Source: Lama guanicoe (lineage: Eukaryota). From it: a DNA stretch of 64,000 nucleotides. Positions 5,278 through 64,000 of this stretch are shown one piece after another; position 1 is the stretch's first letter; every line of letters starts with the position of its first letter. Under the pieces are notes generated by a model. That model was not told the DNA's origin, did no database searches, and worked only from the letters and a program-made list of their open reading frames with translations. The stretch spans positions 248,001-312,000 of the forward strand of contig MU053754.1 in assembly GCA_013239625.1 (NCBI GenBank), read 5' to 3'. Made by a program: the position numbers and the translations under genes.

Positions 5278-5291
5278 AGAATCCGTTATTT

Positions 5292-5647
5292 TTAAAATTT
5301 TTTATGTATTTTTACCGAAGTACAGTCAGTTTACAATATTGTGTCAGTTTCTGGTGTACAGCATAATGTTTCAGTCACGTAGGAACATACATACATTTGT
5401 TCTCATAGTCTTTCTCACCACAGGTGACTACAAGATACTGAATATAGTTTTCCTGTGCTGTACAGTAGAAACTTGTTGTTTATCGGATTTTGTGAGAATC
5501 CTCCTGTATTTGAGAACGAGAGACAGCCTCCCAGAGTTCAGTAGGTGTTCCGTGTGATTCGATGGGTTTGTAGGCGTCATTCTTGGTGTATTTGTGGGAG
5601 AGGGTGAGCTGTGAGTCTCTCTACTCTGCCGTCTTGGCTCCATCCCC
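5292..5647 (-). mobile_element. Internally deleted or spliced L1 retrocopy (5' UTR start joined to 3' UTR end)
   Basis: The minus strand begins GGGGATGGAGCCAAGACGGCAGAGTAG, an L1 start with a YY1-like motif. It joins at 5484/5483 to ATAAACAACAAG of the L1 3' UTR and an A-rich tail. Degenerate TSD agaatccgttattt (5278) and agaatccatccttt (5648). Confidence 0.75.
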
Positions 5648-7449
5648 AGAATCCATCCTTTAAAGTTGAGTGTTTTGATACCAATCTATTCTTTCCTTCT
5701 TCATTTCCAAATTGGAACTCTCACCATCTTAACTTCATGCATGTCAGCAGCATCTCTCGATGAAGAACTTGAATTGAAACATGTAGATTTTATAAGAGAG
5801 AGAAGTCTTCTAGGTGTCTCACTGCCCCTGTCAGTTTTCCTGGATTTCTGGACAAGAAGTCGTTGTTTCTGGATGATTGAAAGTGGGGCAGCGTGTGTGC
5901 TTCCCACAGCCCGAGTTATGGTTCCTGCAAGAGTCGAGCAGTCGTGCAATTACTGAGCAGTGTTTGTCAAGGCCACTCCATGTCCATCGCTGCTGGACAA
6001 CTGTGCCCTTCCTTGTGTAGGTTTTTGCCAGGGGAAAGGCTGCTATAATCATGCAGGACCAGGAGCAGTTATAGCAGCTCTCTGGACTCTCCTTTTCCTA
6101 ATGAATAGGACACACCTTCATCGTCAGGGACTGACCTTTAAACACTAATGTAAATCTTTCGGCCAGTTGTTTTATTAATTGCTAGAACCTAGCTCTCTGG
6201 GGTTGTTAATTCGCCCTACACAAGGACCACCTGCAATTAATCTTTCTCTAATTCTTGACACCATGGTTTACAATTATTGATTTCTTTTTAAAAACCAATT
6301 AGATATTTTAGTCTTTTACAAACTTACACAAAACTGCAGGTCCCTAAAATGATTTGAGTGTCCACAGAGAAGAGCCCTGAGCAACTGATCAAGGTTTGGT
6401 CTATAAAGCTTAGATTCACTGACATGCAAAAGTAGATTACCTGTTTAAGCGGAGAACATCCTTTGCAAGGGACGAATGAATCCAGGTACTGCATCCACAG
6501 GGCTGTGTTCGACCTGCCCCATGTTGTCAGATGCTCGGTCGGTGACTGACAAGGACAATTCAGACCTGTCTTGTACCTTATAAATCAGAGCTGACAGGTA
6601 CAGATTTGGCCCTCACTGACTCTCTCTGTCCCTACGTGTTCAGGACCAGGAAGAGCAGAGAAAGCACACAGACACCTTTACCCAATAGCTATTTCTATTC
6701 TGAACCACCCTCTGAAGCAAAATGGTACCTGTTCGTGCTCCAAGCCGACTGAAATATGATAGCGTGTCTCATGATTACAGGATGCATTCATTTCATGTTT
6801 TCCTTTTCTCAGTTCACTTTTCTCCTGTGTAAAGGAACCTTGGAGAAAAAAACTAACCTAAGGTAATTGACAGTAATTGACAGTCCTGACTGAGAGGAGC
6901 ACAGAGACAGAAACGCAGTGTTCTCAGGATTCATTCTGCTCTGTCTTTTGATCTCTCAGCCTCTTCTTCTGTCTCTGCTTAGTCTGTGCTAACCCATAAA
7001 TTTATCTCTCGGACCTCCATGTGCTCCGTCTCCGCAGCCTGACTGACTTACTCCTACAGCTCTCTGCCCTTTGACTTGGTACCCTGGATTTCTTGTCTTC
7101 TTTTGCCTGTGTTGGCACTTCTGGGAACATCACCCTTTTTTGTGACTAAAATCTTCTGCGAGGCTGCCAAATCTCCTTTTATTGAAATATCCTCATAGGA
7201 AGATTTATCAGTTCTTTCCTCATCTGGATCCTACTGTGAATGAACTTGGTCCTCAATGCTGGCAGATAAATATTTTGCCTTTGAGTATGTCTTCTCTGTT
7301 ACCTGAAGATTTAGGGGAAATTTATCCTGTGGAACAATACCTTTGGCCTTACAACTTTGTTTTTCTCAAAGATTAAAAATCTGTCCCAGTTAGCTTAAAA
7401 TGGCAATTAATATTTCTTTATCTTTACTAGAAAACATGGCATCCATATA

Positions 7450-8629: not shown

Positions 8630-9410
8630 CTAAGTTGTTTGCATTTTCGTATAAATCTTAGAGTCTGCTGAAGAATTCCTACAAAGAAGCTCCTAATGGC
8701 TTATACTTGGATAACATTGAATCTATGCGTCATTTGGGGGCAGGGAAATTGACATGTCAAAAATAAGAAGAAATCTTACAATCCTTGAAAATGATAAGTC
8801 TCCCCATTAATTTATGTCTTTGTTAATTTCTCTGAGCAGTATTTTGTAGTTTTCAGTAGAGAGATCCTGGGCAACTTTTATTAAATTTATACCTAAGCAT
8901 TTTTGGTGGGTGATAACAGTGTAAATGATGATGGTTTTTTCAATGTCCTTTTCCAGTTGTATGCTACTAGCATATAGAAATACACACGATTTTTTTAAAT
9001 TAAAAAACATTTTTTAAAAATGGAGGTAGTGGGGATTGAACCCAGGACCTCATGCATGCTAAGCATGTGCTCTACCACTGAGCTTTACCTTCCCCCTGAC
9101 AAATGATTTTTGAGTATTGACTTTATATTTCTAAGATCTTGATAAATGACATATTGTAGTGTTTGTTTGATGGATTATTTAGTAAACTTCATGAAAGAAA
9201 TAATTTTAAATATAATTTGACTTCTTCCTTTCCATTTTTGTGCCTTTTATCTCTCTCTCTTGCCTTAGAACCTCCAGTACGGTGTTGATTAGAGATACTT
9301 AGAGTAGACTTCTTTTGTTCCCAGGCTTTGAGAAAGATCATGATGTTTAACAATTAAGTACGATTTTATCTGTAGATATTCTTTATTTGATTGAGAAGTT
9401 CTCTTTCCTG
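8630..9410 (-). mobile_element. Old L1M ORF2 fragment, interrupted by a SINE
   Basis: ORF 8807..9010 contains KCLGINLIKVAQDLSTENYKILLREINKDIN, matching the L1 ORF2p motif KYLGINLTKEVKDLY.ENYKTL.KEI. Confidence 0.85.
8996..9096 (-). mobile_element. tRNA-derived SINE (Vic-1-like, camelid)
   Basis: tggaggtagtggggattgaacccaggacctcatgcatgctaagcatgtgctctaccactgagc gives antisense A and B boxes. Degenerate TSD acacacgattttt / acaaatgattttt inside the L1. Confidence 0.85.
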
Positions 9411-15695: not shown

Positions 15696-15835
15696 AAAAA
15701 AAAAGTTTTTTTTTTTCCAGGGGAGAGGTAATTAGATTTATTTATTTGGTTTTTCAGTGGAGGTACATGGGGATGGAACCCAGGACCTCACGCCTGCTAA
15801 GCATGTGCTCTGCCACTTGAGCTTTACCCTCCCCC
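15696..15835 (-). mobile_element. Vic-1-like tRNA-derived SINE
   Basis: Antisense tRNA-like head and a gaggtaattagatttatt tail. 15-bp TSD ctgtccctgacattt (15681) and ctgttcctgacattt (15836). Confidence 0.9.
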
Positions 15836-20482: not shown

Positions 20483-20840
20483 TGACATAGGAGGAGGGGA
20501 CAGGAAGTGACATAGAAGTAAGGAGAGGGGACAGGAAGTGAAATAGAGGTAGGGGAGGGGACAGGGAGTGACACAGAAGTAGAGGAGGGGACAGGAAGTG
20601 ACATAGAACTAGGGAGAGGGGACAGAAAGTGAACAGAAGTAAGGAGAGAGGACAGGAAGTGACAGAAGGAGGGGGACGAAGTGACATAGAAGTAGGGGAG
20701 GGGACAGGGAGTGACACAGAAGTAGAAAGAGGGGATAGGAAGTGACAGAATTAGGGAGGGGGACAGAAAGTGACAGAAGTAGGGAGGGGACAGGAAAGGA
20801 CATAGAAGTAGAGAGAGGGGACAGGAAGTGGCAGAAGGAG
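20483..20840. repeat. Purine-rich minisatellite, about 12 units of about 30 bp
   Basis: Approximate consensus GGGGACAGGAAGTGACATAGAAGTAGGGGAG, with unit starts at 20500, 20531, 20561, 20591, 20622, 20652 and onward. Confidence 0.95.
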
Positions 20841-21301
20841 AGGCAGGGCCATGGAGGGAGGTACGGGATCAGAGAGGGAAGGTGGGGTTAGGGTAAAAGG
20901 TAACAAAATTACAGTGATTTTAAAGGGTTACCCTTTGGATGATTATAAAACATTTTAATGGAAAGGTCTATATTTATACCATCAGAATTTAAAAAAAAAT
21001 ATGTGTTTGGCCATGAGAGTTAATATACCTTGATCACCATTATTAAAAGGTACAAGTGCAGCCAGCAGACATTTGCCAGCATTTTAAGAGTAAATCATGA
21101 GAAGTACTAAATTACATCCTTATGTCCAAAAGTGCCCATTGGTGTAAAAAGGTAGCAATTATCTGCTATAGCACCATACTCACTCATGATATTTTTGCCA
21201 TGAATTTGGAATACTGCACAGAAATGCATTAGAAACTAACTTCAGAGGCATTAAATTCTCAGCTGGACAGTACTGGCCTTTTTAAAAAAAATTCTACAAT
21301 G

Positions 21302-22474
21302 AAAAATAAACAAATGGGACCTAATCAAACTTACAAGCTTTTGCATAGCAGAAGAAACCATCAACAAAATGAAAAGACAACCTATGGAATGGGAGAAATT
21401 ATTTGTAAACTGTAAGACTGACAAGAAATTAATTTCCAGAATATTCAAAAAGCTCATACAGTTCAATATCCAAAAACAAAGAACCCAGTCAAAAAATGGG
21501 CAGAAGACCTAAACAGACATTTCTCCAAAGAAGACATACCAGTGGCCAATAAGCACATGAAAAGATAATTGGAAAAAAAATCAGCATTGCTAATTAGAGA
21601 AGTGCAAATCAAAACTACAATGAAGTATCACCTTGCACCAGTCAGAATGGCCATCATCAAAAAGTCTACAGATAACAAATGCTGGGAGAGTATGGGAAAA
21701 GGGGATCCCTCCTGAACTGCTGGTGGGAATGTAAATTGGTGTAGCCACTATGGAAAACAGTATGGAATTTCCTTAAAAAACTAAAAGTAGAGTTATCATA
21801 TGGTCCAGCAATCCAACTCCTAAGCATTTATCCAGAGAAAACTCTAATTTGCAAAAATACATAAACCCCAGTGTTCATAGCAGCCCTATTTACAGTAGGC
21901 AAGCCACGGAAGCAACCTAAATGTCTTTCGACAGATAAATGGAGAAAGAAGTGGTGTACACACACACACACACGCACAGTGGAATACTACTCAGCCATAA
22001 AAAAGAATGAAATGCCATTTCCAGCAACATGTATTGACCTAGATATGGTCATACTAAGTGAAGTAAATCAGACAGAGAAAGACAAGTACCATATGGTTGC
22101 ACTTATGTGGAATCTAAAATAGGATACAAGTGAAGTTATTTGTAAAATAGAAATAGACTCACAGACATAGGAAACAAACTTATGGTTGCCCAAGAGGAAG
22201 AGCAGCAGGGACAAATCAGGAGTTTGGGATTAGCAGATGCAAACTACTATATATAAAACAGATAAACACCAAGGACCTACTGTAGAGCACAGGGAACTAT
22301 GTTCAATATCTTGTAATAACCTATAAGAAAAAAATCTGAAAAATAATATATATATATATATATATATGGAACTTGAGTTACTTTGCTGTACACCAGAAAG
22401 TGACACAACCTTTTAAATCAATTTGTGTACTTCAATCAGTAAAATTAAACAAACAAACAAATAAATAAATAAAT
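21302..22474 (+). mobile_element. 5'-truncated L1 with ORF2 C-terminal remnant, 3' UTR and A-rich tail
   Basis: ORF 21871..22122 (MFIAALFT...EYYSAIKKNE...ILSEVNQ) is the L1 ORF2p C-terminus. Tail is (AAAC)n(AAAT)n. 14-bp TSD aaaattctacaatg (21288) and aaaattctgcaatg (22475). Confidence 0.95.
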
Positions 22475-24917: not shown

Positions 24918-25095
24918 GAGGAGGGTTATAGCTCAGTGGTAGATCGTGTGCTTAGCATGCTCGAAGTCCTGGGTTCAATCCCCAGCACCTCCATTAAAAA
25001 ATAAGTACATAGTAAATAAATCTAGTTACCTCCAGAAAAACCCAACAGATTTTTTAAAAGATTAAAAGGAACTGAAAAAAATTTAAAACAGAAAA
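24918..25095 (+). mobile_element. Vic-1-like tRNA-derived SINE
   Basis: A box TAGCTCAGTGG (24929), B box GGTTCAATCCC (24972) and an A-rich tail. Degenerate TSD acgccctcattgtaga / acaccttctttgtaga. Confidence 0.9.
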
Positions 25096-25978: not shown

Positions 25979-26345
25979 CACTATTTATACATACTCTTGC
26001 ACCCCCTTCCCTTGGTCTTAAGTGTCATCTCTATGCACAGATACCAGTGCCTCTACTTACTTTCTAGTTCCTAATTCTCAACTCTGGCTGAATAGCTTGA
26101 CCTTGAGATACCACTGGGTCCCCCGTATTTTCCTTTGGAATAAGTTCAAATGGTCATGTTTAAAGAACAATGAATATATGTCCAGGGTGATACTAAATGC
26201 TGTACTTGGATCAATTTAACATTGAACTGGGAAATACCCATAGTTTACAGAAATGAAACTGAAGGATACAGGTTAAATAACCTTGTATAGGTCACAGAGG
26301 CAGCCAGGGATGCAGCTAGAACGTGAAACTCAAGCCATATTTTTT

Positions 26346-26906
26346 AAATATAATTTTTTTATTGAAGTGTAGTTGATTTACAAAGTTAGTTTCATGTGTA
26401 CAGCAAAGCAATTCAGTTATACATATACAGACATGTTTTTTCATATTCTTTTCCATTATGGTGTATTGTAGGATATTGTCTGTTATCCCTCCCCTGCCTT
26501 TCCCCATTGGTAACCATAATTTGTCTTCCGTGTCTGAGTCTGTTTCTATTTTGTAAATGAGTTCCTTTGTATTATATTTTAGATTCCACATATAAGTGAT
26601 ATCATATGATATTTGTCATTCTCTGTCTGATTTACTTCACTTAGCATGATAATGTCTAGGTCCATCCATGTTGCTGCAAATGACATTACTTCATTCTTTT
26701 TAATGGCTGAGTAGTATTCCATCGTACATATACACCACATCTTTATCCAGTCATCTGTCAGTGGACATTAAGGTTGTTTCCATGTCTTGGTGACTGTAAA
26801 TAGTGCTACTGTGAACACTGGGGTGCATGTGTCTTTTCAAATTAGAGTTTTCTCTCGATACGTGCCCAGGAGCGGCATTGCTGGATTATAGACTTGCCAT
26901 ATGATC
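26346..26906 (-). mobile_element. 5'-truncated L1 with a tiny 5' inversion
   Basis: Antisense L1 3' UTR and ORF2 end. 14-bp TSD caagccatattttt (26331) and caagccctattttt (26907). The terminal ~20 bp are in the opposite orientation. Confidence 0.92.
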
Positions 26907-33593: not shown

Positions 33594-34061
33594 TGTTACC
33601 GATCAGGGTCCCTGGACTCCTTCCTTGATCAGCAGAAATAGATAAGAGGCCAGACGAGGAATTCAGGAGAGGCTTTATGGGAACTCGTGCAGCAGCAGGA
33701 GGGAGTGAGAACAAGAAACAAGTGTCCTTGGTCCTTTCCTGAGAGGGGGATGAGCTGGTCCTTTAAATGGGGTGAGGGTGGGGGCAGGCCAGATGGTGGG
33801 GAAGGCCAAGAGGGTGGCATAGGTGGTCTGCCAGCCCCCTTGGTGGTGTGTGTGCAGGCATCCTACGTGCTACCTGCTTCTGCTCCCGGCACCTCAGAAG
33901 TGGCAGCTGGGTTTTTTGCCCTTTTGTATCTTACTGTTCATAGTTTGCCCCAGCTGTGTGTGCACTAGTTCTTTCTAGTCCCTTGCAGTTTCTTCGCATT
34001 CTGTTGCACCAGATGTCTGTCCAGGTGCAAGCACTCCAGTAAAGGGCCCCAGCCTATCTAA
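33594..34061 (-). mobile_element. ERV1-class solo LTR (family A)
   Basis: Starts TGTTACCG, 4-bp TSD gtac/gtgc, and is clearly homologous to 56057-56512. Confidence 0.85.
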
Positions 34062-43747: not shown

Positions 43748-44389
43748 TTTTTTTTTTTTAATTGAAGTATAGATGATTTATAATATTATACTAGTTTCAG
43801 GTGTACAGCGTGATGTTTCAGTATTCTTATAGATTACGGGCCATTACAATTTATTCCAAAATAATGGCTCTAATTCCCTGTGCTGTGCAATATACCTTTG
43901 TTGCTTGTCTAATTTATACGTAGTAGTTTGTGGTTCTTAATCCTCTACCCCTATTTTGCCATGTCCTCCCTTCCCTCTCCCCACTGGTAAATACTAGTTT
44001 GTTCTCTATATCTGTGTGTCTGTTTCTGTTTTGCTGTATACGTTTGTTTATTTTTTAGATTCCATATATCTACATATAAAAGTGGTAACATACAGTCTTT
44101 CTCTGACTTATTTCACTAAGCATAATATTCTCTAGATCCGTCCACGTTGGTGCAAATTTCAGCATTTCACTCTTTTTTATGGCTGACTGATACTCCATCG
44201 TGTGTGTATATATGCACCGTATCTTCTTTATCCATTTGTCTGTTGATGGATACTTGTGTTGCTTCTGTATCTTATTTATTATAAATGATGTCACTATGAA
44301 CATCAGGGCTGCAGGTATCTTTTCAAATCATTTTGTGTTTCTGTTTTCCTGGATATATACCCAGGAGTGGAACTGCTGGATCATACGGT
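43748..44389 (-). mobile_element. 5'-truncated L1
   Basis: Poly-T followed by aattgaagtatagatg. The minus-strand ORF 44070..44303 contains PTWTDLENIMLSEISQ. Confidence 0.92.
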
Positions 44390-55736: not shown

Positions 55737-55786
<50 letters not shown>

Positions 55787-55807
55787 TTCTTTGTCCATTC
55801 ATGTATC
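55238..55807 (-). mobile_element. 5'-truncated L1 (L1MA-type) containing a (TG)20 microsatellite
   Basis: Antisense L1 3' UTR, TSD agattgttt at 55229 and 55808, (TG)20 at 55743-55782. Confidence 0.88.
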
Positions 55808-55974
55808 AGATTGTTTCCAACAGTAATTGCTGTTCACTAGCTATTACATTGTGAGGCCTTTCCCAGAAGCCTCTCAGAAATGTTCTTTGTCCATTCATGT
55901 ATCAGATTGTTTCCAACAGTAATTACTGTTCACTAGCTATTACATTGTGAGGCCTTTCCCAGAAGCCTCTCAGA
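55783..55974. repeat. 96-bp tandem duplication (one mismatch)
   Basis: 55783-55878 and 55879-55974 are identical except aattgctg versus aattactg. Confidence 0.97.
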
Positions 55975-56056: not shown

Positions 56057-56512
56057 TGGTACCGGCCCAGGGTTCTTGGAGCCTTTCATCAGTAGAAGCT
56101 GATAAGAGGCCAGAGGAGGATTTCAGGCAAGGCTTCACGGGGACTCGTGCTGAAGCACAAGGGAGCGGAAGCACTAACAGGCGCCCTTGCTTGTTCTCTG
56201 AGAGTGAGGGGTGAGCCGCCCCCTTAAACGGGGCGAGGGTGGGTTGGGCAGAGGCGTGGCTCCGGGAGTCCGCCTGCTCCCTTGGTGCGGCGTGTGCAGG
56301 GATCTCGCCTGGCACCTGCCTTTGCTCCCAGCGCCTCAGACGTGGCAGTAGGGTTTGGCCTTTTTGTATCTTGTTGTTCATAATTTGCCCCAGCTGCACA
56401 CGCCTGCGGTTATTTCTAGTCCCTTGTAGTTTCTTCATGGTCTGTTGCTGGAGGGGACGTTTGTCCAGGTGTGAGCGCTGCAGCACTAGGTCCCGGGTCC
56501 CAGCCTGTCCCA
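56057..56512 (-). mobile_element. ERV1-class solo LTR (family A)
   Basis: TG...CA termini, TSD ctgc/ctgg. Shares gataagaggccaga and ttttgtatctt...gttcata..ttgccccagctg with 33594-34061. Confidence 0.85.
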
Positions 56513-58420: not shown

Positions 58421-59051
58421 TGTCAGGGAGGAAGACGACTTGATCTTTCTAGGTTCTTCTGGCTACGAATTAAATTGACATGAGACAGATGAACAAGAGA
58501 AATTCAGATTTAATTTTGTACATGTGGGAATCCCACTCACGTGAGAGTGTGAGACCACACATTCTCGAGAGGCTCACAGACAGGAGGGTAAAATGAAGGG
58601 TCCACCCCACCCTGAGTGAAGGGCCTTCAGAGACAGGAGGGTTGTTCACAGGAGGGGCAGAAGGAAGGCAGATCTTGGGTGATCAGACATCTGCCCTGCC
58701 GTACAGATGGGGGCCACTTAGATAGCGTTGTTCTCTGGTAGTAACTCTTCTCTGGGAAGAAGCCCCAGTTTAATTATTCTAAGGGAGGGGTCAGTACTTT
58801 CTCTGGAACCTGCAGGGACTGGATTGCCTCTGGCAGAAAATAATCCTCACGTAAAAGTGGCACGTTGTGTGGGCGCGGGTATCATTCAAGTGGTAGAGCG
58901 CATGCTCAGCATACACACGGTCCTGGCTTCGATCCCCAGGACCTCCATTAAAAATAAATCAGTAAACCTAATTACCTCCCCCTCAAAAAATAAAACCATA
59001 AATTTTGAAAGAAGTGGCACATTTTGAGGAGCCTCTGCAGGACCGTCCCAG
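58421..59051 (-). mobile_element. ERV1-class solo LTR interrupted by a SINE
   Basis: TGTCAGGGAGG start with aattaaattgacatgagacagatgaacaagaga (same U5 type as 51294), TSD gtgc/gtac. Confidence 0.8.
58870..59011 (+). mobile_element. Vic-1-like tRNA-derived SINE nested in an LTR
   Basis: gtggtagagcgcatgctcagcat...ggcttcgatccccaggacctccattaaaaat...aaacctaattacctcccc. TSD aagtggcacgttgtg (58855) and aagtggcacattttg (59012). Confidence 0.9.
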
Positions 59052-63794: not shown

Positions 63795-64000
63795 TCAAAA
63801 AATTTTTTTTAATTGAAGTGTGGTCAGTTTACAATGTTGTGTTAATTTCTGATGTACAGCATAGTGATTGAGTTATACACACACACACACATATATATAC
63901 CTTTTCATATTCTTTTTCATTATAGTCTATTACAAGATGCTGAATATAGTTCTCTGTGCTGTACAGTAGGACCTTGTTGGTTATCTACTTGGTATATAGT
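63795..64000 (-). mobile_element. L1 3' end, cut by the window edge
   Basis: ttttttttaattgaagtgtggtcagtttacaatgttgtgttaatttctgatgtacagcatagtgatt...ctgtacagtaggaccttgttgg. Confidence 0.92.

Follow-up and report, generated by a model that had tools for sequence, protein, structure and literature searches.

A 356-bp L1-derived insert in Lama guanicoe that joins a putative 5′ UTR start to the 3′ UTR end, probably by RNA splicing

The 64-kb window of the Lama guanicoe genome (the whole stretch of 64,000 nucleotides that was analyzed) contains a minus-strand insert of SINE size that consists of two parts, a 5′ head that we read as the start of an L1 5′ UTR and the end of an L1 3′ UTR. We consider it probable that this insert is a retrocopy of an L1 RNA which was spliced from the 5′ UTR into the 3′ UTR and was moved in trans, such copies arising repeatedly from unspliced parents. 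In the proposed course of events, a full-length L1 would be transcribed from its own 5′ promoter, and the spliceosome would connect a donor at position 164 of the 5′ UTR with an AG that follows the ORF2 stop by about 140 nt. The remainder of the 5′ UTR would thereby be lost together with ORF1 and ORF2 as a single intron of several kb. The resulting polyadenylated RNA of about 360 nt would code for nothing, and its copying would therefore be carried out by the proteins of other L1s, which would reverse-transcribe it at a new site in a target-primed reaction leading to the 14-bp duplication. Most copies formed in this way would be dead ends.

Anatomy, insertion hallmarks and age of the insert

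According to a direct reading of the letters of the window, the insert (5647-5292, minus strand) comprises 356 bp. Its G-rich start lies at 5647, the head runs for 164 nt to G5484 (minus strand), and the 3′ portion of 192 nt ends at 5292 in a decayed A-rich tail. The individual features are as follows:

5648..5661, minus strand: copy of the target site duplication (TSD) preceding the element; starts at a TTT/AAAG endonuclease-like site, 11/14 against the other copy
5484..5647, minus strand: 164-nt head, putative L1 5′ UTR start; first bases of a high-copy repeat
5483..5484, minus strand: joint; G5484 is either the last base of the head or the G of the acceptor AG
5292..5483, minus strand: L1 3′ UTR end (last 192 nt), with the decayed A-rich tail at ~5313-5292
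5278..5291, minus strand: TSD copy behind the tail, pairing with 5648..5661

The initial annotation had described an insert of ~356 bp on the minus strand with a degenerate 14-bp TSD, in which 164 nt are followed by the L1 3′ UTR end and an A-rich tail, and this description was borne out. Its placement of the joint also holds with one refinement: G5484 is compatible with both sides, so that the joint has an overlap of 1 nt, and the loose contig ends described below begin behind 5484. A motif in the head starting at 5636 (minus strand) is presumably of the YY1 type. Head and 3′ UTR together account for all 356 bp, leaving no coding remnant, and the two frames of ≥78 aa that cross the joint had no match in Pfam.

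The insert carries the hallmarks of retrotransposition, i.e., a duplication, an endonuclease-like site and an A tail. The two TSD copies (5661-5648 and 5291-5278) are identical at 11 of 14 positions. In random trials, 80 out of 20000 windows of 66 nt contained such a match for the real 14-mer, and 180 out of 20000 14-mers reached this level against the actual tail region. The sequence TTT/AAAG at 5664-5658, at which the upstream TSD copy starts, resembles the L1 endonuclease site as described in passages of Larson et al. (2018; PMC5860796). Within 5278-5661 there was neither an Rfam match nor a tRNA call that would indicate a small-RNA head, which means that the insert is not a SINE of the Pol III type. 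Elsewhere in the window, tRNA-like heads are present at 9021-9092, 15758-15831 and 24921-24993, two of which were called as tRNA-Ala. They are similar to one another and to 58886-58995, and they probably represent a SINE family, presumably the camelid Vic-1 SINE.

In all four public sequencing runs inspected (X1, X3, X11 and X17), both ends of the insert were joined to the flanks. The flank contigs differed from the window at 0 of 389 positions in X1 and X3, 5 of 406 in X11 and 13 of 356 in X17. Since both ends were joined in all runs, the insertion is older than a split of ~3.7%, an age in agreement with the decayed state of the duplication and the tail.

The two sides of the joint

The 3′ part of the insert shares 71-79% identity with four L1 3′ ends of the window (139/177, 124/162, 110/155 and 123/160). 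Three of the L1 copies served as comparators for the acceptor side:

21290..22450, plus strand: 5′-truncated L1 with a broken ORF2 end; stop at ~22122, AG at the acceptor position at 22260-22261
63807..64000, minus strand: L1 3′ end; AG ending at 63985
43748..44385, minus strand: L1 3′ end; AG ending at 43909

The copy at 21290-22450 (plus strand) matches human ORF2p with E values of 6e-35 and 3e-27, and position 22261, the equivalent of G5484, lies 139 nt into its 3′ UTR. An AG before the equivalent position had previously been noted at 22261, 63985 and 43909; it is present as stated at these three sites and in addition at ~15361, and thus in 4/4 window L1s that hold the site. A fifth L1 piece (26356-26451) was not alignable across the acceptor site. 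The L1 3′ end at 26338-26890 (minus strand) apparently lacks the acceptor stretch, its 3′ UTR having been internally deleted there.

The acceptor position was also examined in the public runs, where 148, 159, 156 and 52 contigs, respectively, leave the alignment behind 5484. In the consensus of these loose ends an A directly precedes the common G in 4/4 runs, giving an AG at the acceptor. The consensus of two of the four runs contains the branch-like word TACTAAC, with a branch-type A 19 nt upstream of the acceptor, and the other two contain this word with one letter off. Two observations count against the splicing reading, namely that TACTAAC is absent from both window sibling L1s inspected and that there is no polypyrimidine tract at the acceptor.

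The remainder of the window contains several further repeats. At 55783-55974, directly after (GT)20 and bordering an L1 piece, there are two tandem copies of a 96-bp unit with 98% identity, a recent local duplication. A purine-rich minisatellite with a period of ~30 and 11.7 copies is located at 20488-20848, and two copies of a 440-bp repeat with 71% identity are found at 33604-34039 and 56068-56483. Pfam gave nothing for 150 of the 173 open frames of ≥78 aa in the window and for 12 read-through frames of the L1 pieces, and hence no host gene was identified in the window.

There is no second copy of the head within the 64-kb window. In the public runs, the summed contig depth over 5502-5633 was 3,300-96,000 compared to 10-18 in the flanks (flanks of run X1); this measure does not give a copy number and served solely as evidence of a repetitive head, i.e., the start of a high-copy repeat. 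Distant relatives of the head were found in four mammalian contigs (L001-L004), mammalian repeat DNA inside metagenome assemblies. From their own 5′ start, which in each case lies just behind an AT-rich cut-site-like stretch, they share 66-70% identity with the head and continue for 560-960 nt of GC-rich sequence, none of them reaching ORF1. We assume that they represent the L1 5′ UTR of a different mammalian lineage, and the head (5484-5647) would correspond to the start of such a 5′ UTR. Relative to L003, as judged by eye, L001 lacks ~60 nt and L002 ~190 nt. A strict head pattern gave 0 stretches in viral and metagenome contigs; a looser one gave 4 matches in metagenomes, 0 in viral contigs and 1 in genome contigs; the latter (L005), located in a bacterial contig, was taken as a chance match and dropped. 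The 3′ end pattern had 0 matches in viral contigs.

Among 1.84 billion protein representatives, only one of two matches was credible (P0001); the other (P0002), with 28% identity and repetitive, was dropped as chance. Word-indexed protein searches returned either nothing or P0001 alone out of 38 candidates.

With respect to the donor side, at least 11 of the 24 non-flank pieces listed (with 49,582 further pieces) end at 5484-5487, and at least 5 of these 11 carry ≥100 unmatched letters beyond this point, indicating that the family normally goes on differently from there. The alignment of P0001 with the translation of the window is gapless over 44 residues with 64% identity, and at the joint P0001 reads S-G-R where the window reads S-D-K. 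This implies a G at +1 and (A/C)G at +3/+4, with +2 being the wobble position, so that this same-family translation fits G/GN(A/C)G after the joint. P0001 also aligns with L002 across and past the joint (E 2e-4), and at the aligned place L002 encodes Gly-Arg by a GT-containing codon pair. In a MAFFT alignment, the joint falls directly before GT in L001, L002 and L004 and before GC in L003. Pairwise alignment placed it exactly before GT for L004 only (4/4 settings), and the best end was 3 nt earlier for L001-L003 (for L001 with a score of 50 vs. 48), which counts against the splicing reading. Taken together, these alignments make a GT donor in the direct parent likely. The initial annotation had proposed that one splice removed both ORFs. 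The union of a 5′ start with a 3′ UTR end, the AG at the acceptor, the insertion as a unit and the occurrence at more than one locus all stood; the GT at the donor is, judged from the relatives, likely. Its suggestion of a non-autonomous family corresponds to the less likely reading considered below.

Recurrence of the joint and alternative explanations

At least 8 of the 24 listed non-flank pieces run from the head across the joint and continue for 22-32 nt beyond it. They differ from the window by 12.5-16.3% and represent at least 3-4 other loci. This is a minimum derived from the matches listed, as contigs break inside these repeats:

X1 record 2, X3 record 26 and X11 record 11: crossing locus extending 32 nt past the joint, the sole one within the 31-letter bridging rule
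X1 record 3 and X3 record 27: crossing locus
X1 record 4 and X11 record 13: crossing locus, preceded in X1 by 769 nt of sequence of its own
X11 record 12: crossing piece with 916 nt upstream, which may equal the locus of X1 record 3

That just one of the 3-4 other loci satisfies the bridging rule of 31 letters, and that no RNA read was seen to cross the joint, counts against the splicing reading. The crossing alignments stop at 5452-5462, where ordinary tails too break relative to the window copy. Four further records were rejected as crossing pieces: X11 record 10 (5349-5506) may be an ordinary tail extended to the contig end, and X11 record 14, X17 record 18 and X17 record 19 reach only 4-14 nt past the joint. 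Run X17 is an RNA library, whose contigs cannot show expression. A different joint, from 5624 to 5317, was present in one contig each in 3/4 runs and connects an L1 3′ end to a following 5′ head; it points to another locus at which the two are nested or lie in tandem. The initial annotation had suggested counting independent copies with the same junction and had held that a unique junction explained by a microhomology deletion after insertion would speak against its idea; with at least 8 pieces from 3-4 other loci, the junction is not unique.

The least probable explanation, to which we give very little weight, is that a full-length L1 collapsed in the assembly or that unrelated pieces lie side by side. 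None of the contigs listed from the four runs spans the joint at the 5292-5647 locus itself, which is in favor of such an artifact, but a single duplication encloses both parts, and separately assembled runs show the same joint at other loci. Slightly better, yet still improbable, is an origin without splicing, in which short homology guided either a template switch that skipped the interior during reverse transcription or a deletion that took place after insertion. G5484 is common to both sides and AAAAT is found a few bases before it on each, the alignment with three distant relatives leaves the register uncertain by 3 nt, and according to passages of PMC6740152 the Persaeus SIDEs break at 5-bp direct repeats. 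A deletion after insertion, however, would not recur at 3-4 other loci. Moreover, GT makes up 3-4% of the dinucleotides in L001-L004 and AG 6-9% in the sibling 3′ ends, so that both would coincide by chance in ~0.2-0.3% of cases in exact register and in ~2% with 3 nt slack. At the position of a Lys in the window, P0001 carries Asn, and part of the AAAAT may therefore be private to the window copy.

The strongest competitor, though still rather unlikely in our view, retains splicing but supposes that one or a few spliced copies had kept enough of the promoter to be transcribed and, as master copies, founded a non-autonomous L1 family without ORFs that propagates itself, i.e., a bipartite LINE which the L1 proteins copy in trans. 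It would account for an identical joint at several loci and for a head that retains the very start of the element, and such families are known for RTE, Ingi, Vingi and R2 (PMC5786205) and CR1 (PMC6740152), as stated in passages of these papers. On the other hand, the joined pieces are about as distant from the window as the unjoined listed pieces, which differ from it by 13.4-18.2%, and joined copies are thus not clearly nearer to the window copy. This argument is weak because decay proceeds similarly in old families and the range is cut by the threshold of 80%, and the divergence values by themselves do not decide, fitting repeated splicing as well as an old master-copy family. In human SpIREs the promoter is weakened and the copies are dead ends, as reported in passages of PMC5860796. 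We favor repeated splicing from unspliced parents as the probable origin of the copies.

Comparison with known elements and implications

The following comparisons refer to passages of the cited papers. SpIREs are spliced human L1 RNAs that were retrotransposed, and they account for 131 of 6,609 full-length L1s (Larson et al., 2018; PMC5860796). The insert resembles them in the putative 5′ UTR donor, the AG acceptor within L1, the presumed retrotransposition of a spliced RNA, the recurring joint and the insertion hallmarks. The acceptors described for SpIREs are located in the 5′ UTR or in ORF1, with ORF2 retained (PMC5860796). The insert, by contrast, has its acceptor in the 3′ UTR and has lost both ORFs, for which reason its mobilization would have to be wholly in trans. 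As the acceptor site of the sibling follows the ORF2 stop by 139 nt, the insert belongs, by its sequence, to neither SpIRE class described there. In its build it is like the ORF-less bipartite LINEs or SIDEs, such as Bov-A, RTESINE and RIME (PMC5786205) and Persaeus (PMC6740152), which likewise consist of LINE 5′ and 3′ ends only, are SINE-sized and have no small-RNA head. Those elements derive from RTE, Ingi, Vingi and R2 (PMC5786205) or CR1 (PMC6740152) by internal deletion, and none is listed from the L1 clade in the passages of PMC5786205. Self-propagation is typical of them, and the insert is likened to them by build alone. HAL1 is, as cited in PMC5786205 and PMC4494074, an ORF1-keeping L1 derivative; it shares with the insert the status of an internally deleted non-autonomous derivative of a mammalian L1, but unlike HAL1 the insert has no ORF sequence at all, ORF1 included. 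The route also parallels that of processed pseudogenes, for which spliced polyadenylated RNA is copied in trans by L1 proteins (PMC5860796), with the difference that the template would be L1's own RNA.

A description of such an element was not found in the literature, in a search that did not extend to Repbase or Dfam. No such element appears in the passages of the camel transposable element paper PMC8605555 nor in those of bioRxiv 10.1101/2025.02.02.635956, and the motifs of the element were not found in the portions searched of the supplementary files of PMC5203782 and PMC8620236.

If it originated as proposed, the insert takes the splicing products of L1 to an extreme, with the entire coding body acting as one intron. 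It would offer a route from L1 to a short non-autonomous element without a small-RNA head. Because the copies encode nothing, they would escape cis preference, and their number relative to full-length copies would gauge the trans mobilization of L1's own ends in the germline. Repeat annotation would split such copies into 5′ and 3′ fragments and thus overlook them. L1-related splicing is released in testis according to PMC10901741. If the copies form no clade of their own, they would be a fossil record of L1 RNA splicing in the germline; if they do, they would constitute an ORF-less bipartite L1 family. In case they propagate themselves, they would represent a splicing-born, SINE-sized parasite of mammalian L1 that retains promoter start and tail and has its own transcription, a class that is not listed for the L1 clade in the passages of PMC5786205.
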